Assembly (NCBI GenBank): GCA_043825735.1
Contig: JBDRRP010000129.1
Location: 62,001 to 126,000 of the forward strand
Length of the DNA stretch: 64,000 bases
Origin: Pseudomonadota bacterium
Lineage (GTDB): Bacteria > Desulfobacterota > Desulfobacteria > Desulfobacterales > JBDRRP01
Reading direction: 5' to 3'
Part shown: in pieces, positions 42,767 through 58,245 of the stretch
How positions within the stretch are numbered: the first letter of the stretch is position 1
Layout of the letters: each line of letters opens with the position of its first letter
The notes under the pieces: generated by a model
Told to the model about the DNA's origin: nothing
The model's input: only the letters and a program-made list of their open reading frames with translations
Database searches by the model: none
Position numbers and translations under genes: made by a program

Positions 42767-43258
42767 ATGAAGACATTGGTTGTTTACTCCAGCCAGACCG
42801 GCAATACCAAGAAGTTGGCCGAAACCGTCGCCGATACCCTCAACGGTGAAGTGAGCGTGTGCCACATCAGCAAGGCGCCGGCGCCCGACGGATTCGATCT
42901 GGTCGCGCTTGGATTCTGGCTGCAGGGCGGCAAGCCCGATCCCAAATCAACGGAATACCTCGCTGGAATCGGGACCTCCAGACTCTTTCTCTTTGCCACC
43001 CACGGCGCTGCAGCAGATTCGGCGCATGCCGCCGGCGCCATGGCGCAGGCCAAGGCCATGGCGCCGGCGGCGCAGATTCTCGGGACCTTCAACTGTCCGG
43101 GCGCGGTCAATCCTGCAGTTTTGGAAAAGGTCCGGAAAAAAGATCCTCAGCCGCCCTGGATCGGTGATGCCCCGGCGGCCGTCGGTCACCCGGATCAGGC
43201 CGACCTGGCGCGGCTGAAAGCGGCGCTGAGCGCTGCGCTTCCTGAGTTTGTTTCTTAA
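42767..43258 (+). CDS. flavodoxin family protein
   Basis: VVYSSQTGNTKKLA FMN-phosphate loop; GFW, FATHG and GHPDQADL motifs. Confidence 0.88.
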   Translation: MKTLVVYSSQTGNTKKLAETVADTLNGEVSVCHISKAPAPDGFDLVALGFWLQGGKPDPKSTEYLAGIGTSRLFLFATHGAAADSAHAAGAMAQAKAMAPAAQILGTFNCPGAVNPAVLEKVRKKDPQPPWIGDAPAAVGHPDQADLARLKAALSAALPEFVS

Positions 43259-43278
43259 ACATTAAGGTGGTGGACACC

Positions 43279-43665
43279 ATGGACATTGTTTCATTCGCCG
43301 ATATTTCCATTGTCTCGTGCGGCACGATGAGCATGGACATGATCGCGGGCGAACAAGCGCGCAACCGGATTGCCCAGGAGGTGGCCGGCGGGGAGCCCGT
43401 GTGGTGGATGACCCCGGGCTGGATCAAATTTAAAAAAGAGGTGTTCAAAGGCTGGGACAAGGCCGTGGCCAACGAGAATTTCCCCAGGCACTCCGGAGGT
43501 GCGATCATTCTCGACGGCATCGGGTATATGGACCACTATATGGAAGAAGCGCCCGAAGCATTTTTGGAATATGCCGACTGGATGGGGATACCGATCATCC
43601 CCTATCCCGTCAGCCTCGATCATTTCATTTCCTTGCTCAACGACGCGGCGACATCGCTTCAATAG
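43279..43665 (+). pseudogene. DUF1638-like protein, apparently with an internal in-frame deletion
   Basis: N-terminal IVSCGT motif joined almost directly to MDMIA...WWMTPGW; about 128 aa, shorter than I recall for the family. Confidence 0.45.
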
Positions 43666-43925
43666 GGTGTCGCAGGCATTCTCTTTTTCGGCCCCGCCTT
43701 TTTCAAATGATTGCGGAAAGCGAGCCAGCCGCCGCAGTGTGTTCGGACCCGGCGCAACGAAATGGCGGCATAAACGGCAGTGTGTGTCGACTACCGGCGA
43801 TCAAATCCTTTTTCCCTGCGCCGGCGGGCGTGTTCAAGGCGGCATTTGGTGGCGGGGTCGAAAAAGAGAATGCCTGCGGCGCCGCCCACTGTCAGAAACA
43901 TCATTTTCGAAGATCCTGCCGATTT

Positions 43926-45323
43926 TTACTGATCCGGCTGCAAAGGGATATCCCACCTTTTCATATACTTCCAGATGGCGGTGCGACTCAGTCCCACCCG
44001 CCGGCCGACCTCCGCCTTGTTCCAGTCGCACTCGGAGAGCAAATCGAGCAGCGCCGCCTTGGTAAGTTTTTTGCGCCGCTGAACGGCTCGTTTCGGCGCC
44101 TCAGTGCAGATTCCAGCGGAGTCCGGTTGCCGGATTTCAACGGGCAGATCAGCGGTGTCGATCTCTTTTCGATTGCACAGCACAAACGCATGCTCGATTG
44201 CATTTTCCAGTTCCCGGACGTTTCCCGGCCACGGGTGATCCATGAAAATACGCAGCGCTGCAGATGAGATACCTGCCACCTTCTTGCCTGTTTTTTCGTT
44301 CATGTGTTTGATGAAATGGTCCGTGAGAACCGGGATGTCTTCCCGGCGTTCTCTAAGGGGGGGCAGATGGATGGGAAATACCTTCAGCCGGTAGTACAGG
44401 TCCTCCCTGAAAAGCCCTTCGCGCACCCGCGCGTACAGGTCCTTGTGGGTTGCCGTGATGATGCGGATATCGATTTTGCGTTTTCGTGAATCCCCGACGC
44501 GCTCGATCTCTCTTTCCTGCAATACCCGAAGAAGTTTTACCTGGATGAAAGGGCTCAGCTCGCCGATTTCATCTAAAAAGATGGTGCCGCCGGACGCTTC
44601 CTCGAAGCGTCCCATGCGGTCCCGGCTGGCGCCGGTAAACGATCCCTTGACGTGTCCGAACAGCTCGCTTTCCAGCAGGTTCTCGGAAAGCGCGCTGCAA
44701 TTTACGGTTATCAGCGGGCCTTTGCGGCGATCGCTGTTGAAATGGATGGCGCCGGCGACCAGTTCCTTACCGGTGCCGCTATCGCCCTGAACCAGAATGG
44801 TCGCATCGCTGGCAGCGGCCGCCCGGATCGCACTGAACACCTGCTGCATGGCCCGGCTCTTGCCGATGATGTTGTCCAAACGGTGAATCTCGCCCAATCG
44901 CAGCGCGGCTTCTTCAACCTGTCTTCTCGCCCGCTTCAACTCGGTCATGTCGGTAACCGTCTCGACAATCCCGATGACCTTGCCATCATCGTCTTTCACG
45001 ACGCTGGCGTTTTTGATTACGGAAACATCATGCCCGTCCTTATGGCGCAACTGGCATTCTTTGGCCTCCGATTGTCCTTTTTCCACAATCCGGCACTTTT
45101 CAATGCTGGCCGGGCATTGCTTGTCAAAACACCGGCTGCACTGCAGCAGCCCACAGGTCTTTCCCAGGGCTTCGGTTGCCGAATACCCGCTGATCCGCGC
45201 CATGGACGGGTTCCACGACGAGATGCGCCCGGTGGCATCCATCGTAAACACGCCATCGGCCATGGCCTCGATGATCCGGTTCACGAAGCGGACATTCCAG
45301 ATTTCATGAATTTTATCGTGCAT
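43926..45323 (-). CDS. sigma54-dependent activator 2 (Cys-rich PAS, AAA+ with GSFTGA, HTH)
   Basis: [23 protein letters not shown] and WPGNVREL motifs; PAS CGLLQCSRC...C. Confidence 0.92.
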   Translation of the reverse strand: MHDKIHEIWNVRFVNRIIEAMADGVFTMDATGRISSWNPSMARISGYSATEALGKTCGLLQCSRCFDKQCPASIEKCRIVEKGQSEAKECQLRHKDGHDVSVIKNASVVKDDDGKVIGIVETVTDMTELKRARRQVEEAALRLGEIHRLDNIIGKSRAMQQVFSAIRAAAASDATILVQGDSGTGKELVAGAIHFNSDRRKGPLITVNCSALSENLLESELFGHVKGSFTGASRDRMGRFEEASGGTIFLDEIGELSPFIQVKLLRVLQEREIERVGDSRKRKIDIRIITATHKDLYARVREGLFREDLYYRLKVFPIHLPPLRERREDIPVLTDHFIKHMNEKTGKKVAGISSAALRIFMDHPWPGNVRELENAIEHAFVLCNRKEIDTADLPVEIRQPDSAGICTEAPKRAVQRRKKLTKAALLDLLSECDWNKAEVGRRVGLSRTAIWKYMKRWDIPLQPDQ

Positions 45324-45352
45324 CGGGTGTTGTGCTTTCGTATGAGGGCATG

Positions 45353-45378
45353 CGTTACCGTCCGTTACCATCCGTTAC
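45353..45378. promoter_or_regulatory. putative UAS, motif 2: three CGTTAC direct repeats with 10-bp period
   Basis: CGTTAC at 45353, 45363 and 45373, just upstream of activator 2. Confidence 0.6.
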
Positions 45379-45471
45379 TTTTTTTGCCGGCAATCTCGTA
45401 AAAGGTCAAGATAATTTACGCGCTGCATGGAGACAGGCACTACCAATTGAAATCGGACACGGCTTAGAAAA

Positions 45472-45487
45472 CGGCATTATACATGCA
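45472..45487 (+). promoter_or_regulatory. sigma54 promoter candidate
   Basis: CGGCATTATACATGCA, GG-N10-GC, about 40 bp upstream of the next gene. Confidence 0.5.
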
Positions 45488-45528
45488 TATAAAATCCCGT
45501 AGGACACCCAAACCTAAGGAGGTGACTT

Positions 45529-45792
45529 ATGTTTGCATTGATCTATGACACCCACGAATTGGACAAGCCGCAGAAAAGAGTGATTTCCAAGCATGAAACC
45601 CGGGAGGCCGCAGAAAAGGCACTGGAAGCCCGTCAAAAACGATTGGGAAGATCGGTTCAGGAATGTGATACCCGCATTGTCTGGCTCAAAAGTGACGTTC
45701 AGCCCGAAGATGTCGTGACCATCAAAGACTTTTCGACATGGAAGCCGGGAGAAAAGATCCCCTATGGGGAAACCCACCCCGACAGCGATTGA
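45529..45792 (+). CDS. small hypothetical protein
   Basis: 87-aa ORF with strong AAGGAGGT RBS. Confidence 0.8.
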   Translation: MFALIYDTHELDKPQKRVISKHETREAAEKALEARQKRLGRSVQECDTRIVWLKSDVQPEDVVTIKDFSTWKPGEKIPYGETHPDSD

Positions 45793-45964
45793 CATCGCAT
45801 CCCGTTGATGGCACTTTAATCACCACGGAGTTCACAGAGAATAACAGAAGCACTTGATTTTAGTGTTGCGCCCTGCGTGAACTCAGGGGTCATATCAATC
45901 TGCGAAATAACCAACTTGAGCGTCGTTGATAACTGATAGACGCCAGGTGCATGGAGGCGCGGCA

Positions 45965-46357
45965 ATGGAGATGGTGATCGATTTTCCGGGCGGCAAGCGG
46001 GTGAACTCAACCTACAAAGGGTTCACCGTAAAAACGGACCAACCGGTGAACGAGGGCGGCGACAATTCGGCGCCGGAACCCTATGACCTCTTTCTCTCAT
46101 CCATCGGCACCTGCGCCGGGGTCTATATCGTCTATTTTTGTGAGAGCCGCGGTATCCCGGCCGATGACATAACGATGGCCCTTCGGTTTGAAAGAAACGA
46201 ACAATCCCATTTGATGGAAAAAATATTGATCGACATCCGCCTCCCACCTGATTTTCCGGACAAATACCGCAAGGCGGTCATCCGCGCCGCCGAGATGTGC
46301 ACGGTCAAGCGAAACCTCATGAACCCACCGGAAATTCTGGTGACTGCAAACCAATAG
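45965..46357 (+). CDS. OsmC/Ohr family protein
   Basis: TDQP..EGG...APEPYDLFLSSIGTCAG and AEMCTVK (two conserved Cys); GGAGG RBS. Confidence 0.88.
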   Translation: MEMVIDFPGGKRVNSTYKGFTVKTDQPVNEGGDNSAPEPYDLFLSSIGTCAGVYIVYFCESRGIPADDITMALRFERNEQSHLMEKILIDIRLPPDFPDKYRKAVIRAAEMCTVKRNLMNPPEILVTANQ

Positions 46358-46440
46358 GCGCCGCCCGGGAACGTCTGTTTTAGCTCTCCCCGTGATGGGT
46401 GCACACTCACGAATTTCCGTCCAAAGCATCGGCGCATCTG

Positions 46441-46485
46441 CGTTACCGTTGCGTTACATTTCAAGAAAACCCAGCAAAGGTAACG
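46441..46485. promoter_or_regulatory. putative UAS, motif 2
   Basis: CGTTAC at 46441 and 46452; inverted GTAACG at 46480. Confidence 0.55.
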
Positions 46486-46594
46486 CTGAAATTACGCGTC
46501 GCCTTTCCTTCCAGCGCTCTCGCGCCAGACACATAAGCCCCTAACATACCGTTTTGGTTGCATATGTATCAATTCCAATCATCCGCCATCACGA

Positions 46595-46610
46595 TGGCAC
46601 GGATGTTGAT
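46595..46610 (+). promoter_or_regulatory. sigma54-like promoter
   Basis: TGGCACGGATGTTGAT: perfect -24 element, TTGA at -12. Confidence 0.55.
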
Positions 46611-46679
46611 AATGCCCTTGGTTGAAATCAAAAATACCGGCCTCCGGCACGGTTAACGGATCAACCAAAGGAGAACAAC

Positions 46680-48338
46680 ATGTGGCGCGTGCTTTCGTTT
46701 TTACAAAAAAACCTGGTCTGGTCGATTCCCATATCCATGACGATCGGTCTGCTGTTCGGTTATTTCTTCGATGCCAGCCCATTGAAGCAATTCATTATTC
46801 CGGTCACCTTCATCATGGTTTATCCCATGATGGTAACCCTGAATGTGAAAACCATCTTCAAGGGCCAGGACTATAAACTGCAGTTGACCACACAGATCAT
46901 CAATTTTGTCCTCGTGCCGCTATTGGCCTTTTATACCGGTAAATTCTTCTTTGCCGGCGGGCCGGAAAAATATGGCCTCTGGGCCGTTGGCTTGTTTCTC
47001 ATCGGCGTGCTGCCCACCTCGGGGATGACCATTTCTTGGACCGGATTTGCAAAGGGAAACAAGGAAGCGGCCATCAAAATGGTGGTCTTCGGGTTGGTGC
47101 TTGGCGCCCTGGCGGCCCCGGTCTATACCAAGATCTTCATGGGTGCCACCATCGATGTCAATATGCTGCATATGTTCAAACAGATCGCCCTGTTTGTCTT
47201 CGTACCGCTGTTTGTCGGGTTGTTGACCCAATATCTTCTCTTGAGCAGATACGGGCGACAGGTGTGGAACGATCGCATCAAACCGAAATTCCCGCCCTTC
47301 TCTGCGCTGGGCGTCATCCTGATCGCTTTTGTGGCCATGTCGCTGAAAGCGAAAAACATCATCGCCAACCCGGGAGATATTCTCACCATTCTGGTGCCAT
47401 TGACGGTGTTCTATCTCGTCACCTACGGATTGCTAACGGTGGCCGGGCGACTCTTTTTCAAGCGTGAAGATGCCATCGCCATGGTCTTTGGCGTGGTGAT
47501 GCGGGATCTGTCCATCGCCCTGGCCATCGCCATGACGGCTTTTGGCAAGCAGGGGCTGACCATCGCCCTGCTTATCGCGCTGGCCTATGTGGTCCAGATC
47601 CAGTCGGCCGCCTGGTATGTGCGCATCGTGGGCAAACTGTTTAAAGACGAGAAGTCTCCGAGCAAAAACGATGATCTTCCGCTCGCCCGATCAGCAACGG
47701 TCACCGAACTGCCTGTGCGAATGGCGCCGATCACCGAATCGGCCGTTCCGTCGATTCAAAAAATCCTTTATGCCACTGACTTGTCGCAAACGGCGCGCCA
47801 CGCGGTGCGTTATGCGTGCAGCATCGGTAACAGTTTCGGCGCCAGTGTCACGGTGCTCCATGTCATTCCCGACGTGCTCGAATCGCTTTCCAGAGAAGCG
47901 GGCATCGACCTGGCCGACCACATGGGCAAAAAAGCGTGGGCCGACTTCAATGCCAACGGCATCGAAAAAGCGCGGCAGGCGATCTATGAGCGTATCCGGG
48001 AAACGTCCCGCAGTGTAACCAGAGAACTTCCCGCCTGCCCCCTGGCCGAGGAAAATATCATCGTCAAGGTGGGCAACCCTGTCAAACAGATTGTTTCCAC
48101 GGCGCAGGAAGGCGGCTTTGAGCTTATCATCATGGGGACTCACGGCCACGGGAAAATGGAAGAGCGAATTATCGGCAGCACGGCCAACGACGTCATCCGA
48201 TTGAGCTACGTTCCGGTAATGGTGATTCGCCTTCCCGAGGAAGCCACTGCGGCGGGATGTCACCGCCAGGGTCATATTAGTAAAAGCGCTGCGGCGCCCG
48301 TGCCGGCCGCTGCAGTACGAACATCCATGGGCGAGTAG
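46680..48338 (+). CDS. ACR3/bile-acid:Na+ symporter (SBF) family transporter fused to a universal stress protein domain
   Basis: MVYPMM, NFVLVP, WTGFAKGN and RDLSIALAIA motifs; USP domain KILYATDLS...LHVI...IIMGTHG...IGSTANDVIR..VPVMVI. Confidence 0.85.
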   Translation: MWRVLSFLQKNLVWSIPISMTIGLLFGYFFDASPLKQFIIPVTFIMVYPMMVTLNVKTIFKGQDYKLQLTTQIINFVLVPLLAFYTGKFFFAGGPEKYGLWAVGLFLIGVLPTSGMTISWTGFAKGNKEAAIKMVVFGLVLGALAAPVYTKIFMGATIDVNMLHMFKQIALFVFVPLFVGLLTQYLLLSRYGRQVWNDRIKPKFPPFSALGVILIAFVAMSLKAKNIIANPGDILTILVPLTVFYLVTYGLLTVAGRLFFKREDAIAMVFGVVMRDLSIALAIAMTAFGKQGLTIALLIALAYVVQIQSAAWYVRIVGKLFKDEKSPSKNDDLPLARSATVTELPVRMAPITESAVPSIQKILYATDLSQTARHAVRYACSIGNSFGASVTVLHVIPDVLESLSREAGIDLADHMGKKAWADFNANGIEKARQAIYERIRETSRSVTRELPACPLAEENIIVKVGNPVKQIVSTAQEGGFELIIMGTHGHGKMEERIIGSTANDVIRLSYVPVMVIRLPEEATAAGCHRQGHISKSAAAPVPAAAVRTSMGE

Positions 48339-49642: not shown

Positions 49643-49936
49643 CTATCCGTTATGTAAAGCATCAAGAACAGCACTGGGATTTTTTGATGCTATTCGCAAC
49701 AGTGCCTTGGCTGGGCCTTCGGGTTTCCTTCTGCCTTGCTCCCAATTTTGTAAAGTTCGGACACTAACCCCAATCATAAGCGCAAATTCATTTTGTGAAA
49801 CATTGAGTTTCTCTATTACATCTTTAATTTCCGGCGAATTGATTTCGTAATTACGGCTTGGTGCCTTACGCCCAGTCTTTATTTCACCGGCTTCCTTAAT
49901 GCTGGCAACCAACTTTTCAAAATGCTCATTTTTCAT
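49643..49936 (-). CDS. XRE-family HTH antitoxin (HigA/NadS-like)
   Basis: SQNEFALMIGVSVRTLQNWEQGRRKPEGPAKALL motif. Confidence 0.88.
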   Translation of the reverse strand: MKNEHFEKLVASIKEAGEIKTGRKAPSRNYEINSPEIKDVIEKLNVSQNEFALMIGVSVRTLQNWEQGRRKPEGPAKALLRIASKNPSAVLDALHNG

Positions 49937-50160
49937 GATAACAACTCCTTGATCATTCCACGGACCAGCTTGAGCGGGTCCGATGTCAAATCTTCTTTTT
50001 CATTCTTCCTGTATGGGAAGAGCATAAAAATAGTGTCAGGAGGACTCCAATAGTAAATGATTCTCAATGCACTTCTTTTTCCTGTACCGGGAAGATTCCA
50101 GCGAATTTTCCGTAAACCGCCACTACCCTGAATCAGGCTTCCGGCATCTGGCCGACGGGA
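49933..50160 (-). pseudogene. RelE/HigB-like toxin, 5'-truncated
   Basis: PDAGSLIQGSGGLRKIRW...GKR..LRIIYY...YRKNEKEDLT present; the usual N-terminal helix and start are replaced by unrelated sequence. Confidence 0.7.
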
Positions 50161-50326
50161 TCTATTGTACATAAACCGGTAAAGTGACGCAAATAAAGGC
50201 CTGGCTGACACGCATTCCGGTACTTTTTCTATATGACAGATTTTGGCCCCGAAAAGTACGAAATAGCCTATACAAACACCTATAATTTGGATAAAAATAT
50301 GTGTGCTTGCAATAGGATAGCTCGGT

Positions 50327-50616: not shown

Positions 50617-50670
50617 AAAAAAGAAAAGCCCCCGGCGGCCGCCTAGATCGGAGGGCGGCCGCAGGGGGCT
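50617..50670 (-). terminator. intrinsic terminator of the cytochrome operon
   Basis: Long GC stem AGCCCCC-GCGGCCGCC / GGCGGCCGC-GGGGGCT followed by TTTCTTTTTT on the minus strand. Confidence 0.85.
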
Positions 50671-50690
50671 CGGGTCGGCTCGGATGCCGG

Positions 50691-52766
50691 TCAGGGTTGG
50701 GGCTTGAATCCCATGGGCAGCCTCTTGAAGCGGCCCCCGAAAATGATGGGATCGCCCTTGTAGCCCAGCGCCTTGAAGTCGATGTAGTCGGTGGTGCCCA
50801 CCAGATCGCTCACATCGCGGCCTTTGGAGGCCATGTATGAAAAGTCGGTCCCCTTGTGGGCGATGGTTTTGAAATCGACATCACGGCTGTCCTGGTGGCA
50901 GCGGTTGCAGGTGCGCTCGCCTTTCAGGCTCTCGTGACACTGCACGCACGAAAGCGCCATGTCCGCCGGCATCACTTCGTGCTCGACCCCCCAGTACATG
51001 TTGGTCTTGACCCACTTGTACTTGCCGCTGTAGGGCAGGTTCGCCGCCTTCATCCCGACGCTGAAAGCCTTTTGCCAGTCGCGGTGCTTCCAGTATGCGG
51101 TGGTATCTTCCTTGTCTTTGGGGAAAAGGTGGGGCACCAGCAGATAGTCGTATTCGGCATCAACGGGCTGGATACCGGCCATGATCTTGAAGGGAGAGAT
51201 CTTTGAATTGGGATCGTTGATGGATCCCACCGGCGCGGAGATGTTGATGTCCTTTTGATCCAGATCCAATTTATCTCCCAGCAGGATGCGCTTCATGAAT
51301 CCGCCATACCAGGTATAGACCGGCTTGGCCGATTCTTTCCACAAAAACTCACCCTTTTTCCAATCGTAGTCCGGCATGCCGTACTTGTCTTTTTTGGGCT
51401 TCCGGTCCTTGTCACCGGCCTTGGACCAGTCCCAGAAGACTTTGGTCGGCTTGCATTTGGCATACACCGGCGCATGGCACGTGGTGCAGGCGATGGTATC
51501 GCTGTGCTTGTTCAGATGATGGTCCAGCAGCTTGGCCCCGGAATGGGGTTTGGCCGTATGACAGTTCGTGCAGGACATGCTGCCCTCCACCACCGGAACC
51601 GACGAGCTGCGGCCGGCGATCTTGTGGTTGCGGGTGCGGTGGCACTCGGTGCACTGAAAATCGTATCCGCCCATGTGAACATCGCAGCTTCGATCCGGTG
51701 TCAAAAGCTGGCGGGAAAGGTCGGCGTGCTTGACCGCTTCTCCGCCGCCACCGTTGAAGTGGCAGTCACCACAGGTCTTGCGCGTGGTGGGGCCCACACT
51801 CTGGGCCACCGCCACCAGGTCAACCTTGGGATCCGGCATACCGGCGGCAGTGGGTGTCTTTTCGTAGGTGCCGGTACGGTCATGGCAGACCAGGCAGTCC
51901 ATTTTAGTCATGTCGGTAAAATCAAATGTCGCGTCTTTCCATCCGTATCCGGCGTGGCAACTTGTGCAACGAGCCTCGTTGCTTGCGATGCTCATTCAGA
52001 AATTGTTGGTGGCAATGGTTGCCTTGCCGAGCAGGACCTCCTTTCTATGGTTGAGCGTATAGGGCGAGGGGCCTTTCCACAGCCAGTGCGCCGATTTGAG
52101 CATGTCTTCGCCGGCCGGCTTGTGACAGCGCAGACATTCGATCGTCACCTCCGACGGAGTCGGCTTGTCGGAAAGCTTAACCAGTGTTTTATGATCGGGA
52201 ACGTTCTTGCTGTGGCAGCCTGCGCAGTCGATGGGCCCCTTGTCCATTTCCTTGTGGCAGCCCATGCACTGCTGGTGATAGGCCGCCTTGAGCCCCAGGC
52301 GTTCGGGGTGGTCCTTTCTGAAGGACTCCTGATGGCAGGCCGAGCATCGCGTGGTTTCCTCAGCCCCCTCGGCCAGTGGGCGGTAGTGGTGGCACAAGGC
52401 ACAGTCCTTGGTCACGGCGGCGTGCTTGCTGTGCATGAAGCGCACCGGCCCGTAGTGATCTTCGGTCTTTTTGAGGATGGGACTGTCGAGCAGAAAATAG
52501 CTTTCGGTCTGGTCCTTGATGCCGAGCCCCATGTCTCTCAAACGCTGCTGGCGGCACAGCCGGCATTCATCGACCACCGCTTCCACAAACGGCACCATTG
52601 CCTTTGCCCGGATTTTTGCAGCCTCCTGATCCGGCGCTGTCCAGCCGGCCGCGGCCGGTTCCGGGGCGGCTGCTGGCGCCGGAGCCGCCGCGATGGCCCC
52701 GCCTGCCGCAAGCAATCCGGCCAGGGTGACCACAATGAATAAAACACCCGGTCCTGTTCTGGTCAT
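50691..52766 (-). CDS. predicted selenocysteine-containing multiheme cytochrome c: tetraheme c3 domain fused to an octaheme tetrathionate reductase (OTR) family domain; 691 aa, 13 CxxCH, Sec at codon 257 (TGA 51996-51998)
   Basis: The two ORFs are in frame and separated only by TGA: HWLWKG...GKATIATNNF-TGA-MSIASNEARCTSCHAGYGW. SECIS-like hairpin follows, and only the upstream part has a signal peptide. Confidence 0.85.
51957..51986 (-). other. putative bacterial SECIS element
   Basis: Stem GCAACGA/TCGTTGC at +14 to +30 after the TGA with GGC loop (GG at +21/+22); possible lower GCAA/TTGC pairing. Confidence 0.7.
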
Positions 52767-53968
52767 GCAGACACCTCCTGTTCCGGTTTATTGAGCACCG
52801 GCAAATAGGTCACAAATAATCGATAGAGAAACATCAACGCCGCGATGAGCCCGACGGTCACCAGCATTTCGCCGATGGCCGGAAAGTAATTGGCCTCGCT
52901 GACCGGCGGCCGGTAGCCCACCACGAACACGTTGATCCGGTTGACCATGACCCCGCCCACAATCATCGTGCAGGCGATGAAAAGCCCGCGCCGGGAGCTG
53001 CGGATTTTCGGCGAGAGCAGCATGAGCCAAGGCACGATGACACCGAAAAGAACCTCGACGATAAAAGCATTGGTCTGGGCGGTGCCGTCAAGCAGGTAGA
53101 CATAAGTGCCGCGAACAACCATGTCACCGACTTTCAGCGCCATGTAGAGTCCCAGTAAGAATAAGGTGATGCGCGTGAGCGGTTCGAGGATTTTCATCTC
53201 CGAATCAAGCTTCAGGCTCGTGGTGGCGAGCGTCGCCTCGAACACCACCATGGGATACCCCACGGCAATGGCCGAGGAGAGAAACAGCAACGGCAGGATG
53301 GGTGTGTACCAGAGCGGGTGCAGTTTGGTGGGCGCGATGAGCATGAGCGATCCCAGGCTGGACTGATGCATGCACGAAAGCACTACCCCGGCAATGATCA
53401 GCACCCACATGATTTTGCCCAGGAGCAGGTCGGCCAGATTCAGCAACCCGTCGACGGGGCGGTTGAGCACGGCCAGGGGCCCGGGAAGCGCCACTTTGCC
53501 TTTGAAGCGTTCAACCACGATGGGAACAAATTCGAGATAAAGCACGTTGAGGTAGAACATCACGCACATGGCCACCTCAAAGAGCACCGACGTGGGGTTC
53601 CAGTAGATTAGCGGCTTCCAGATGGCCCAGGAGCGGCCGATATCCACCAGAAGCCCCAGTACGACAAAGGTATAGCCCAGCATGGCGGTGAGCAGTGCCG
53701 GGCGCACCACCGGTTCGTAATAATGGCGACCGATGATGTGGGCCAGAAACGCCGTGGTGAACCCTCCGGCCGCCAGGGCCACGCCCGAGGCCACGTCCAC
53801 GCCGATCCACAATCCCCAGGGCCTGGCGGTGCTGAGATTGGACACATAGCCGATGCCGCCGATAAACCGGGCAATAATCGTTGCGGCACCGGCTGCCATG
53901 AGGACAGCCAGCACGACAACCCCGGGAGTCCAGAATTTCGCATTGATGGGCGCTGCATGATGGCTCAT
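52763..53968 (-). CDS. NrfD/PsrC-family quinol-interacting membrane subunit (HybB/HmcC-like)
   Basis: [36 protein letters not shown] and MHQSSLGSL...KLHPLW motifs; about 10 TM helices. Confidence 0.9.
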
Positions 53969-54888
53969 TGGCCGCCTCCTTTTCCGCCGCCTTCGGCGCG
54001 CTCACCCTTGTCCTTGAACCCCCACATGATGCCGCTGAGCATGCCGAACAACACGATGGGAGACCACAGATAACTGAACAAGGAGTGTTGAATGGTTTCG
54101 GCGAGCTGGGGAATGGGCTTTTCCGGCAGCGCCGTGAACCCCAGCTTTTCAAAGGGAACGCCGGAGACATACATCCAGCTGGTGCCGCCCACCTCGTTTT
54201 CACCGTAAATATGGTCGATGTAGCGGCCCGGGTTTTTATCGATACGTTCCCGGGCCACCTGACGCAGGGTGCTGCGACGGCCGAAGGTGATGGCCTCCAC
54301 CGGGCAGATCTCGGCGCAGCCGGGCAGCTTGTTTTCCGCCGCCACCCGCTCGTAGCAGAAGGTGCACTTCATCACCCGCGGGGTGATGGGGTCGTGATAC
54401 TCGTAGGCCGGAATCTCGAATGGGCAGGCCACCATGCAGTACCGGCAACCGATGCATTTGCTGACATCGTAGTGCACCGCGCCGTTTTCTTTCTTGCTCA
54501 AAGCGCCCACGATGCATGCCGAGGCGCAGGCCGGGTCCTGGCAGTGCATGCACTGGAGCTTGACAAAGGTGGGAATCAACTGATCCCGCTCGTCGATCAC
54601 GCCGGAAGTATAGCGGTTGACTACCGTGAAGGCCCGCTCGTCGGGCCGGCGTTTTTTATCCAGGATCGTCAGGTCTTCGAAGGATTGATCCGGCGGCGGC
54701 AGGTGGTTGACGCTGTTGCAGGCCTGCTCGCATTTGCGGCAGCCGATGCATCGTGTCAAATCCACCAGACAGCCGTACGGGTCGGCCGGCGCCTTAGACT
54801 GCCATGCACCCACCGATGGCGCCGGCACGGCGGCCGTGGCGCCCGCAATGCCCATGAACTTGAAAAAGCCTCGACGGCTCAGTCCCAT
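53965..54888 (-). CDS. Tat-exported 4Fe-4S ferredoxin subunit (HybA/NrfC/HmcB-like) with C-terminal TM helix
   Basis: SRRGFFK twin-arginine signal; [36 protein letters not shown] and KCTFC...PGCAEICP motifs; GGAGG RBS. Confidence 0.92.
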
Positions 54889-54915
54889 AATGCCTCCTGT
54901 CACATGATGACGGCG

Positions 54916-55191
54916 TCACTGCCGCCGGACGTCTATCTCAGCCGACCGCACCGTTGCGCTGCCGGTCATTTTTACCAGATGGATCTCATAACCCTCGGCG
55001 GCGTGCCGGGCAGTCAATTCAGTCCCCGGCAGCGCACCGAAGAGCAGCACCAGGTTTTTGAAAACATTTCCGTCTTTCAGAGTTACGTCCAGCGCATCAC
55101 AAGGCTTCATGACATCGAGCAGATTGTGACATTTCAGTATGCTGGCGGGCCACGGAATGTCTGCCAGATTGAGCCGGTATGTCCGAGGCAT
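54916..55191 (-). CDS. degenerate TusA-fold protein (CPxP replaced by WPAS)
   Basis: LNLADIPWPASILKCHNLLDVMKPCDALDVTLKD...YEIHLVK pattern; GGAGG RBS. Confidence 0.6.
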   Translation of the reverse strand: MPRTYRLNLADIPWPASILKCHNLLDVMKPCDALDVTLKDGNVFKNLVLLFGALPGTELTARHAAEGYEIHLVKMTGSATVRSAEIDVRRQ

Positions 55192-55256: not shown

Positions 55257-55272
55257 ATCAAATCGCATGCCA
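55257..55272 (-). promoter_or_regulatory. sigma54-like promoter of the cytochrome operon
   Basis: TGGCATGCGATTTGAT (TTGA at -12). Confidence 0.6.
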
Positions 55273-55451: not shown

Positions 55452-56840
55452 GTGAGCGGATTGGAGTTCGATCAGTATTGGTGGCGGGTCATCAACACAA
55501 TGAACGATGCTCTTTTGATCGTCAGCAACACCGGCATCATTTTAACGGTCAACCAGTCTTTTGAGGAGATGACCGGATACAGTGCCACCGAAGTGATCGG
55601 CAAGCCCTGCACCCTGTTGGAATGCAATGCCTGCGAAAAAGTCATCAACCCGGTCGGCGGCATGTGGTGTAAGCTCTTTGATCTCGGCAACCCGGGTATC
55701 CGCCGCTGCCGCTGCGAAATTCTCAAAAAGGACGGGACCTATCTGTCCGCGCTGAAAAATGCCTCCGTACTGCGAGACAACGCCGGCACTGTACTGGGAG
55801 CGGTGGAAACCCTGACGGACATCTCCGAACTGACCCGGCTGGATGAAAAGGTGAGAACCCTGTCGCGCCAACTGGGCACCGACCAGACGCGGCACGGGAT
55901 TGTCGGCGAATCCTCCGGCATCCAAAAGGTCCTCGATATCATAGAAAAAGCGGCCAAAAGCGATGCGCCGGTGATCATCACGGGAGAGAGCGGCACCGGT
56001 AAGGAGCTCGTTGCTCATGCCATTCACGATATGGGAAACCGCCGCAACGGCCCCTTCGTGCAGCTCAATTGTGCGGCCCTCAACGAATCCATCCTGGAGA
56101 GTGAACTGTTCGGCCATGTCAAGGGGTCGTTCACCGGTGCCTACCGCGACCGAAAGGGGCGGTTCGAAACGGCCAACGGCGGGGATCTCTTTCTCGATGA
56201 AATCGGGGACATCCCCATGGCCATCCAGATCAAACTGCTGCGGGTTCTGGAAACCAAGCAGTTCGAACATGTCGGTGATGATCAACCGGTTACCGTGAAC
56301 GTCCGGATCATCACGGCCACCAACAAAAATCTCATCGAGCTGATCGGTGAGAAGAAGTTCCGGGAGGACCTGTACTTTCGCATCAACGTCATTCCCATCC
56401 ACCTGCCGCCGCTGCGGGAAAGAACGGATGACATCCCCTTGCTGGTAAATGCATTCGTCAAGCAGCTCTCTACGATGACGGAAAAGGATATCCACGGCCT
56501 TACCAAGGAGGCGCTGCAGTACCTGATGGCCTATCGGTGGCCGGGTAACATCCGCGAACTGAAAAGCGCCCTGGAATACGCTTTTGCTATCGCGGAAAAT
56601 GGCCCGCTGACCGCCGACCACCTGCCCCCCTATGTCCTGACAGGCAGACCGGCGGTATGGGGGCTCGACACCCAAAAATCTCCACAGGCATCCTCTGAAC
56701 GCCAGGCCCTCATCGATGCATTGAAACAAACTGCCGGCAACCAATCGCAGGCGGCGCGGATTCTAGGGGTAAATCGTGTGACGGTATGGAACCGGATGCG
56801 AAAATATGGCATCGATCTCAAACGGGAACTTTCCGTATAG
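55452..56840 (+). CDS. sigma54-dependent activator 3 (Cys-rich PAS, AAA+ with GSFTGA, Fis HTH)
   Basis: [23 protein letters not shown] and WPGNIREL motifs; [12 protein letters not shown]...WC; GTG start. Confidence 0.92.
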
Positions 56841-57006: not shown

Positions 57007-58245
57007 ATGACCGACACCCTGTTTGTGCAGTTTTACAACAAATCCAAGAGCGGCTACTACGACCTGTGCAACGGGTTTTCAGACACCTATGATCTTTGTG
57101 CGGGCACCGGCGATTTCTACTGGACCGAGCACGAACCGGATCGCGGCAAATGGTATTCGGAGGAGACCTACCAGGGCAGGGAACTGCCTATCAACAAGGG
57201 CAAGGTCTATATCAGCGCCATTTACGCCAACCATCTCTTCCAGGCCTATGTATGGGCCAAGGCCTATCCGGACATCACATTTACCGTCGGTGGGCCGGTG
57301 GCGGCCGAACGCTGCATCGAAGCAAAGCAGTGGAATCCGATTTATCTCATCGTCGATGACGGGTTCTCGATTCCCGACAACCTCATCATCACCGGAAAAA
57401 GTGTGGAAGACATCTTCGGAGTGCCGAATTTTTCGGGCCGCTGGAAACTGGATATCCCTCAGTTTGTTCCGGAAACGGCAAAAATCTATTTCTCGTATAC
57501 CATCGACAACGGGTGCTACTGGAAAAAATGCGAGTTCTGCAACATCGCCCTGCATGCCAGGGAGGCCTTCAGGGCGCGAAAAGAAATGCATTTGGAGTTC
57601 AAGGACCTCGATCATCCGGGGCACAAGATTGTCCGGTTGAACACCGGTTCCATACCCCTTCAGTTTATCCGGCAAACACTGCCAAAGCTCCCCCGCCGCG
57701 GCGACATGGAATACCGGATGTTTATCAGAACCGGACGCGCCGAGAATGCGGCCTTAAAGGAAATGCTGGCAGGATACGAGGGGCGATTTCCCAGCAGTAT
57801 CCTGGGATTCGGAATGGAGTTTCCCTCCAACCGGATGCTCAAAAGCATGGGCAAAGGCTGCACCACGGAAGACGTGCTGGCGTTCATCCGAATCTGCCGC
57901 GGCCGTGATATTCGAATCAACGCCAATTTTATTCTTGGCTGGAACAATCTTACCGAAGCGGATCTGGGCGAGCTGAAGGGTTTTCTGGAAGCCATGCCCG
58001 AAAATGCGTTCACATCTCTGCAGGCCCGGTGGCTCCTGGCCCATCCGTACTCGAAAATCCATGATACCTATCAGGGAGAGCCCATCCGGCTGGGGCCATT
58101 TTATGAAGGGTTCCGGGTGAATATCAACGATGAGCAGATGCTGCTCAATCAAAAAGCGGCCGATATCGTCGAAAAGTACTCGGTGATCAAAAATTACAAA
58201 CTGGAAGGCATGCCAAATATTCGAAAGCAGTTGAGCGGGGCGTAA
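57007..58245 (+). CDS. radical SAM protein (divergent, resembles the B12-binding class)
   Basis: GCYWKKCEFC CxxxCxxC motif, upstream VGGP and FGMEFPSNRMLKSMGKG; GAGGA RBS. Confidence 0.8.
   Translation: MTDTLFVQFYNKSKSGYYDLCNGFSDTYDLCAGTGDFYWTEHEPDRGKWYSEETYQGRELPINKGKVYISAIYANHLFQAYVWAKAYPDITFTVGGPVAAERCIEAKQWNPIYLIVDDGFSIPDNLIITGKSVEDIFGVPNFSGRWKLDIPQFVPETAKIYFSYTIDNGCYWKKCEFCNIALHAREAFRARKEMHLEFKDLDHPGHKIVRLNTGSIPLQFIRQTLPKLPRRGDMEYRMFIRTGRAENAALKEMLAGYEGRFPSSILGFGMEFPSNRMLKSMGKGCTTEDVLAFIRICRGRDIRINANFILGWNNLTEADLGELKGFLEAMPENAFTSLQARWLLAHPYSKIHDTYQGEPIRLGPFYEGFRVNINDEQMLLNQKAADIVEKYSVIKNYKLEGMPNIRKQLSGA

Follow-up and report, generated by a model that had tools for sequence, protein, structure and literature searches.

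Two open reading frames on the minus strand of a 64,000-nucleotide stretch of a Desulfobacterales contig (here called the window), one of 256 aa (51996 to 52766) and one of 434 aa (50691 to 51995), follow each other in the same frame and are parted only by a TGA codon (51998 to 51996). The locus raises the question of whether this TGA is a stop or a selenocysteine (Sec) codon and, if the latter, what a Sec residue would do in the multiheme cytochrome that the joined frame encodes. An earlier reading of the letters alone (the sequence-only reading) had taken the two frames for one gene, which standard annotation would split, and the product for an OTR-family cytochrome with Sec at the conserved NNFC cysteine.

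One reading frame for a 13-heme c3-OTR fusion

The coordinates and the peptide context quoted in the sequence-only reading agree with our analysis: the TGA is the sole break, and it is codon 257 of a single frame (50691 to 52766, minus strand) with a read-through product of 691 aa. AGGAGG precedes the true start, and no sequence resembling a Shine-Dalgarno (SD) site precedes the ATG that follows the TGA, as had been noted. After the stop codon, a GC-rich hairpin followed by a U-tract (50617 to 50671, minus strand) is a likely intrinsic terminator.

The read-through protein contains 13 CxxCH motifs, 5 upstream and 8 downstream of the TGA. From the N terminus, it consists of a predicted and likely cleavable signal peptide (52689 to 52766; a basic residue, a hydrophobic stretch, and AIA-A, recognized by eye), a class III cytochrome c (c3) module with four CxxCH motifs (aa 102 to 185, 52212 to 52463; PF02085, E = 1.3e-14), an OTR domain with eight (aa 192 to 613, 50928 to 52193), and a ninth C-terminal CxxCH, all encoded on the minus strand; five of the motifs lie outside the eight in OTR register. 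The c3 module also matches HmcA and the nine-heme cytochrome. The protein scores 510 bits against the OTR model TIGR04315 (cutoff, 375), and alignment with the Shewanella oneidensis OTR (1SP3; E = 2.6e-118) places eight CxxCH motifs (aa 211 to 611) in the OTR register. With this match, the assignment to the OTR family stood, but the protein is a 13-heme c3-OTR fusion and not an octaheme cytochrome. Because codon 257 faces the NNFC cysteine in the 1SP3 alignment, the TGA falls within the OTR domain, after heme I and before heme II; the first OTR heme motif (CLRCH, aa 211) and HWLW are both N-terminal to it, as claimed earlier.

A structure predicted from 116 sequences without hemes (pLDDT, 90.6; pTM, 0.88) retrieved 1SP3 as the top match in a fold search (E = 2e-44, 41% identity, TM score of 0.87 by target), with c3-type cytochromes next; an N-terminal helix (residues 7 to 20), at the putative signal peptide, has low pLDDT. 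A CxxCR motif located before the c3 module (aa 68 to 72, 52551 to 52565) is present in some close orthologs and missing from others and is probably not a heme site. The expectation that annotation splits the gene held for 8/120 database matches, which are 432- to 436-aa fragments beginning just past the TGA, but one or more family members carry a Sec annotation at NCBI.

Coupling of the TGA codon to a hairpin

The hairpin described in the sequence-only reading, 7 bp with a GG-containing loop at +14 to +30, was found at 51982 to 51966 (minus strand), with a 3-nt GGC loop, 20 nt from the UGA to the loop, and a folding energy of −9.0 kcal/mol in isolation. Checked against the published values for bSECIS elements (loop of 3 to 9 nt, stem of 4 to 16 bp, G[G/U], spacing of 16 to 37 nt, and minimum free energy of −7.5 or lower; PMC13188914, section 5), the hairpin lies within every range. 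Judged on the window sequence by itself, the fold does not exceed chance expectation (z = −0.64; 53 of 200 shuffles were equally stable), and an Rfam scan of the 64-kb window gave no matches. Since the hairpin is unremarkable in a single sequence, the case for a SECIS rests on comparison.

Sixty-four protein-retrieved loci were compared, comprising the 34 motif-bearing members of 64 contig-scan loci and the 30 best matches from 239 genomes, the latter being those among 401 genomes of the same order with a TIGR04315 match over the cutoff. The codon at the Sec column is TGA in 32 loci and TGC or TGT in the other 32, and a perfect 7-bp stem is present in 32/32 TGA loci versus 0/32 TGY loci, which is the pattern that the earlier reading had predicted. 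This split holds in two distant clades, with the proviso that related loci are not independent. The N, E, R, and C residues of the hairpin are each encoded by one codon in 32/32 TGA forms; flanking codons vary freely in these forms, and the same hairpin codons vary in the Cys forms. At +8, 24 of the 31 distinct Cys contexts have Pro, whereas the TGA forms have Ala (31) or Ser (1), so that the loop reads GGC or GUC and follows the bSECIS rule of G and then G or U. Only this SECIS-coded position separates Sec from Cys cleanly, a comparison that is partly circular because database rows were chosen by the Pro there.

A metagenome scan for the TGA and hairpin, with the loop base left free, yielded at least 120 matches; of the 120 listed, 118 are in-frame OTR genes and 2 are unrelated. 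The loop is GGC in 108 and GTC in 7 of the 115 metagenome matches with full context. A phylum-wide pattern search matched 9 of 401 genomes, the source genome among them, and a reversed control matched none. Two contigs of close relatives in sediment metatranscriptomes span the TGA, with no change there among the differences listed; because these contigs carry neither strand nor level, they were not counted as evidence of expression. Three sediment metatranscriptomes contained only 5 to 16% of the sequence words.

A longer loop near aa 548 to 557 (51096 to 51125) was observed in 74 of 80 codon-verified Sec rows versus 1 of 32 codon-verified Cys rows with a parsed loop; it is also found in 41 of the 97 multiheme Cys rows from the database, and the association is confounded by kinship. 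Separately, the TGA-type OTR genes of four loci (L034, L118, L125, and L162) have a further early stop or frame break, possibly reflecting decay or assembly errors.

Sec machinery and a selC*-type locus

The genome, 100% complete by computed estimate, carries selA, two copies of selB, two copies of selD, both containing an internal TGA, and a pair of UCA tRNAs, one a canonical tRNA-Sec; all four genes that a Sec reading calls for (selA, selB, selC, and selD) are present. A selenoprotein motif scan of the genome returned two fdh and two mvhD-like candidates amid much noise and missed both selD genes. Of the 47 genomes that carry a TGA-type OTR, 45 have selA, 45 have selB, and 46 have one or both; 24 of the 47 came from the same-order search, where the TGA codon was checked only if the sequence was retrieved. 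As selA is also present in 49/49 genomes with a Cys-type OTR, its co-occurrence indicates compatibility only, and three genomes appear in both lists. Taken together, the TGA/TGY column, the SECIS confined to TGA forms, and the full Sec machinery uphold the proposal of Sec at the NNFC cysteine. Judged from these comparisons of sequence, SelB, the hairpin, and Sec-tRNA almost certainly act at UGA257 to give an exported 13-heme selenoprotein.

Elsewhere in the genome than the Sec-OTR gene, a locus on contig C107 (92540 to 95827; L003) holds a UCA tRNA, the second selB, and a shortened CysRS gene in a row. The tRNA, with A1:U72 and U73, directly precedes the second selB and a 417-aa CysRS, which covers positions 2 to 371 of a 466-position model and is missing the C-terminal part. 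In gene order, A1:U72, U73, the UCA anticodon, and the shortened CysRS, the set matches the selC*/SelB*/CysRS* system as characterized in passages of PMC5389517; according to that source and passages of PMC7609411, this system of Desulfobacterales inserts Cys at UGA. By its gene content, the set on C107 may do so here as well. The second selB was found in only 4 of the 47 TGA-OTR genomes, however; the TGA is thus retained without the selC* system, which is at most a local backup and more likely steps in when selenium is low than serves as the main reader of UGA257. The second TGA-containing selD lies ∼5 kb beyond this locus (C107, 101127 to 102053), and two further cysS copies are located on contigs C121 and C53.

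Distribution of Sec in the OTR family

Sec occurs both in the 13-heme form and in 8-heme OTRs, the latter being only 42 to 47% identical to the present protein over the OTR domain and yet having the 17-mer in common with it. A quick OTR-domain tree (LG+G4) was built with the Sec column and the next 9 to 10 residues masked and with 281 rows thinned to 110. The test set of 102 rows (38 Sec) left out two long branches and six NE[A/S] database proteins, the latter because their Cys might be a converted Sec. On the 102-row tree, the Sec/Cys label needs 13 changes, 9 of them forced by well-supported branches, and a single Sec clade is rejected (AU test, P = 1.8e-21). Sec lies in at least four places of the unrooted tree, namely, the 13-heme clade, a Desulfobacterales 8-heme clade, and the single rows L105 and L142; as the tree is unrooted, this scatter fits repeated gain and an ancient gain with many losses alike. 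The residue at +2, which is clade specific (Ser in 80/85 multi-heme contexts and Asn in 52/57 single-domain contexts), disfavors a recent exchange of a TGA-hairpin cassette between 13-heme and 8-heme clades.

Operon and genome context

The Sec-OTR gene is the last of an operon. Its start overlaps by 4 nt a gene for an NrfD-family membrane subunit (HybB/HmcC-like; 52763 to 53968, minus strand; PF03916, E = 2.1e-21; NF008133 and NF045714 matches below cutoff), which overlaps by 4 nt a gene for an Fe-S subunit with a twin-arginine-type N terminus (HmcB/HybA-like; 53965 to 54903, minus strand). The first gene is a 91-aa ORF (54916 to 55191, minus strand) that has no Pfam match and whose structural look-alikes are TusA/DUF2249 proteins (TM scores of 0.70 to 0.75). 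The TusA motif is a CPxP cysteine, and Trp takes the place of that cysteine here; relatives of the ORF lead the operon in 12 of 29 loci. A candidate sigma-54 −24/−12 site (55257 to 55272, minus strand) is imperfect at −12, with similar sites in 8 of 23 related loci, and the product of a divergent gene for a PAS-domain sigma-54 activator (55452 to 56840, plus strand) is the likely regulator.

The neighbors are conserved, the Fe-S gene in 24/29 loci and the NrfD gene in 25/29, with misses mostly on short contigs. Natural NrfD-c3-OTR fusions occur in P0116 and in three loci; those of the three loci are Cys type, ∼1,090 aa long, with 12 CxxCH motifs (L220:3925-9874, L221:4771-10991, and L222:801-7082). 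The next gene after the fusion encodes a protein of 730 to 735 aa in 3/3 loci, and for the two proteins scanned PhsA was the best match, below cutoff. In two of these loci, an Fe-S gene follows along with the PhsA-like molybdoenzyme gene.

The source genome contains dsrA, and a search of it gave no NrfA-family match. It also encodes a Cys-type 8-heme OTR paralog (C107, 247942 to 250302; L231:4942-7302) that is 34% identical to the Sec-OTR, has a 10-residue spacer before heme II, and is followed by a gene for a PhsC-like cytochrome b; one genome carries both Sec and Cys OTRs. In Desulfosarcina variabilis (L009:7769-10085), the Sec-OTR operon has as neighbors a beta-lactamase-fold/rhodanese protein and the C-terminal part of a PrxU-type peroxiredoxin, the latter being likely another split selenoprotein. 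Just past the operon terminator in the window, two small ORFs (49643 to 50211) resemble, by eye, a RelE/HigA-type toxin-antitoxin pair. Positions 42767 to 48338 hold, also by eye, a flavodoxin-like ORF, a second PAS sigma-54 activator, an OsmC-like ORF, and a transporter-USP fusion; in L232, the 13-heme gene is followed by a similar flavodoxin-like gene, and in L006 it is followed by the transporter and the activator. Beyond the divergent sigma-54 activator lies a radical-SAM-like ORF with weak family matches only (57007 to 58245).

Sec257 and the OTR active site

Sec257 (51996 to 51998, minus strand) stands opposite the NNFC cysteine of the Shewanella OTR in the alignment (residue 64 by count), and Lys248 (52023 to 52025, minus strand) aligns with the Lys of GKK, the heme II ligand in OTR. 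Lys occupies the Lys248 column in 194 of 194 grouped rows, and its ligation of heme II in the present protein is predicted from the alignment. The GGGG[D/E]AVKH segment of 1SP3 is retained. We take the alignment counterparts in 1SP3 (Cys64, Lys56, Asp150, and Lys153) to be active-site residues, and the column of residue 257 is presumably close to heme II. In OTR work from Edinburgh, Cys64 is said to matter for tetrathionate.

Leu or Ala stands at the Cys/Sec column, with the heme II Lys kept, in 10 of 166 database proteins with the motif (P0092, P0093, P0095, P0099, P0109, P0111, P0115, P0118, P0173, and P0203); a thiol at this column is thus not universally needed. By their sequences, these proteins possibly form a thiol-free subfamily, and several have His two residues later. 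Lys ligation of OTR heme II is stated in a passage of PMC11024163, and a figure legend of the MmcA preprint lists a cysteine among OTR catalytic features.

Proposed mechanism

In the reading that we prefer, SelB would bind the +14 hairpin, Sec-tRNA would decode UGA257, and the 13-heme product would serve as catalytic subunit in a periplasmic complex of three parts. Quinol would give up electrons to the NrfD subunit, from which they would pass through the Fe-S subunit and c3 module and along the OTR heme chain to heme II, ligated by Lys248 and with its sixth site open. Such a quinol-fed complex delivering to an open, Lys248-ligated heme II is probable, given the operon, the fusions, and the OTR structure. 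Sec257 would replace the OTR active-site cysteine, its selenolate would attack an S-S bond (in tetrathionate, polysulfide, or a similar compound), and two heme electrons would reduce the Se-S adduct. We hold attack and reduction of this kind to be slightly better supported than not, and the whole of recoding, complex, and S-S chemistry is, by a similarly narrow judgment, the best explanation. The wider earlier proposal of heme-selenolate chemistry on S-S bonds or N-oxyanions is plausible.

A precedent is MccSep, for which the Discussion of PMC13510729 proposes Sec-driven S-S cleavage at a heme, with the adduct reduced by hemes. Tetrathionate reduction by a Beggiatoaceae OTR relative and induction of otr by tetrathionate are reported in passages of PMC6449678 and PMC8528874, respectively, and the PhsA-like neighbors of the sister fusions were counted toward S-S substrates. 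Counting against the preferred reading, Cys forms occur in Sec-competent genomes (49/49 with selA). According to passages of PMC12949373, deletion of OTR in Shewanella ANA-3 had no effect on tetrathionate respiration; the authors propose sulfite as the substrate in vivo, and nitrite and hydroxylamine reduction prevailed in vitro.

Alternative explanations

That the TGA is a nonsense mutation, a base-call error, or the border of two real genes is extremely improbable. An ATG does follow the TGA in this locus, and the C-terminal half stands as a separate protein in databases, but the TGA is not peculiar to this assembly, with 32 genome loci and 118 metagenome loci sharing it at this column. The codon after it is neither ATG nor GTG in 70 of 149 distinct contexts, so that there is no conserved second start. 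A break at this point would fall between OTR hemes I and II and leave eight heme motifs without a signal peptide, and intact TGC orthologs are up to 75% identical; conservation refutes this explanation. It is also very unlikely that UGA257 is read mainly as Cys by selC*/SelB*/CysRS*, giving an ordinary Cys-OTR as the usual product. The arrangement on C107, with the A1:U72, U73 tRNA before the second selB and shortened CysRS as in the passages of PMC5389517, speaks for such a reading, but the canonical tRNA-Sec, selA, selB, and two selD genes are present, and few TGA-OTR genomes (4/47) have the second selB.

The same selenoprotein might instead reduce nitrite/hydroxylamine or sulfite at the open heme II, with Sec only tuning the pocket or resisting oxidative or nitrosative inactivation, a role that we regard as a serious but less probable alternative. 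It would accord with the in vitro activities and the proposed in vivo substrate in the passages of PMC12949373, with the Leu/Ala-column variants that retain Lys248, and with a genome in which no NrfA-family match was found, where the Sec-OTR could fill the nitrite role. However, Sec recurs at this single column in distantly related lineages, although it demands a fixed hairpin and the replacement of a Pro, and this fits a catalytic nucleophile; PhsA-like genes adjoin the sister fusions, and DsrA is already in the genome for sulfite. A further, unlikely alternative is an Hmc/Nhc-type electron-input or relay complex directed toward the quinone pool, for example, one oxidizing a reduced sulfur compound at Sec/heme II. 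Although the HmcB and HmcC models are best or second best for the partner subunits and the c3 module matches HmcA, every Hmc match is below its cutoff (HmcA, 76.7 versus 400 bits; HmcB, 361 versus 420; HmcC, 271 versus 550), the OTR catalytic Lys is retained, and characterized OTRs are reductases according to passages of PMC11024163 and PMC12949373.

Relation to known systems

TIGR04315 is already listed as a database-annotated selenoprotein family: Table 1 of a 2026 review (PMC13188914) lists it with one Sec and the example WP_331457571.1, marked "GenBank annotated." The novelty of the Sec subfamily that the sequence-only reading had implied is therefore not supported. The listed protein belongs to the same HMM family as the Sec-OTR described here, with one Sec in each, and its Sec likely lies at the same column as Sec257; motif, position, and architecture are not specified in the table. 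Passages of that review mention neither the 13-heme fusion nor the invariance of the SECIS, nor that Sec is scattered over the family tree. The present analysis adds the exact coupling of codon, hairpin, and residue, the scatter of Sec on the tree, the evidence from the operon and the fusions, and the putative Cys-inserting system that the source genome also carries. No experimental study of a Sec-OTR was found in the literature searched, outside which most subscription journals lie. Term searches found no mention of tetrathionate in a 2022 review or the Olavius selenoproteome paper, and passages of PMC11492766, PMC8840924, and PMC10376724 contain nothing on Sec.

The Sec-OTR shares with 1SP3 eight CxxCH motifs in register, the heme II Lys, the NNF context, and GGGG[D/E]AVKH. 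It differs in having Sec for Cys and Ala for Pro at +8, an extra c3 module and a ninth heme, and its own Fe-S and NrfD subunits encoded alongside. Geobacter MccSep (ExtKL, NF040886) is likewise a periplasmic multiheme c-type selenoprotein with an in-frame UGA, a SECIS, and a proposed Sec attack on S-S bonds, but it has five hemes and a His/Cys-ligated active heme, whereas the protein described here has 13 hemes, the OTR fold, and a predicted Lys-ligated open heme. The NF040886 model had no match in the genome, and no MccSep chain was among the fold matches listed. As described in passages of PMC4641369, Desulfovibrio OhcBAC (DVU3142/ohcBAC) similarly combines an Fe-S subunit, a multiheme cytochrome, a membrane subunit, and a divergent sigma-54 activator; compared by description, Ohc has an octaheme cytochrome and a heme-b membrane subunit, and the membrane subunit here is NrfD type. 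The likeness to Hmc/Nhc lies in the HmcB/HmcC-like partners and the HmcA-like c3 module.

Implications

The physiological substrate of OTR has been open since 2004, and a passage of a 2026 genetic study (PMC12949373) calls its function unestablished. That Sec, Cys, and Leu/Ala all occur naturally at a single column marks the residue as redox relevant and provides ready-made comparisons, including in cultured Desulfosarcina species (L009 and L015). Among sediment sulfate reducers, Sec forms are common and, because gene callers often split Sec-OTR genes, are undercounted. The coupling of TGA, hairpin, and the Pro-to-Ala change is a clean case of an RNA signal dictating protein sequence. A bolder possibility, which we put forward tentatively, is that Sec-OTRs form a second, unrelated class of heme selenoenzymes that cleave S-S bonds at a Lys-ligated open heme. 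Sec would have arisen at this cysteine on several occasions, always with one and the same 17-nt SECIS, since (S/G)NExRC coding allows essentially one hairpin, and in the present genome Sec and Cys might be switched via selC*. If this were true, it would indicate sulfane sulfur as the real substrate class of OTR.
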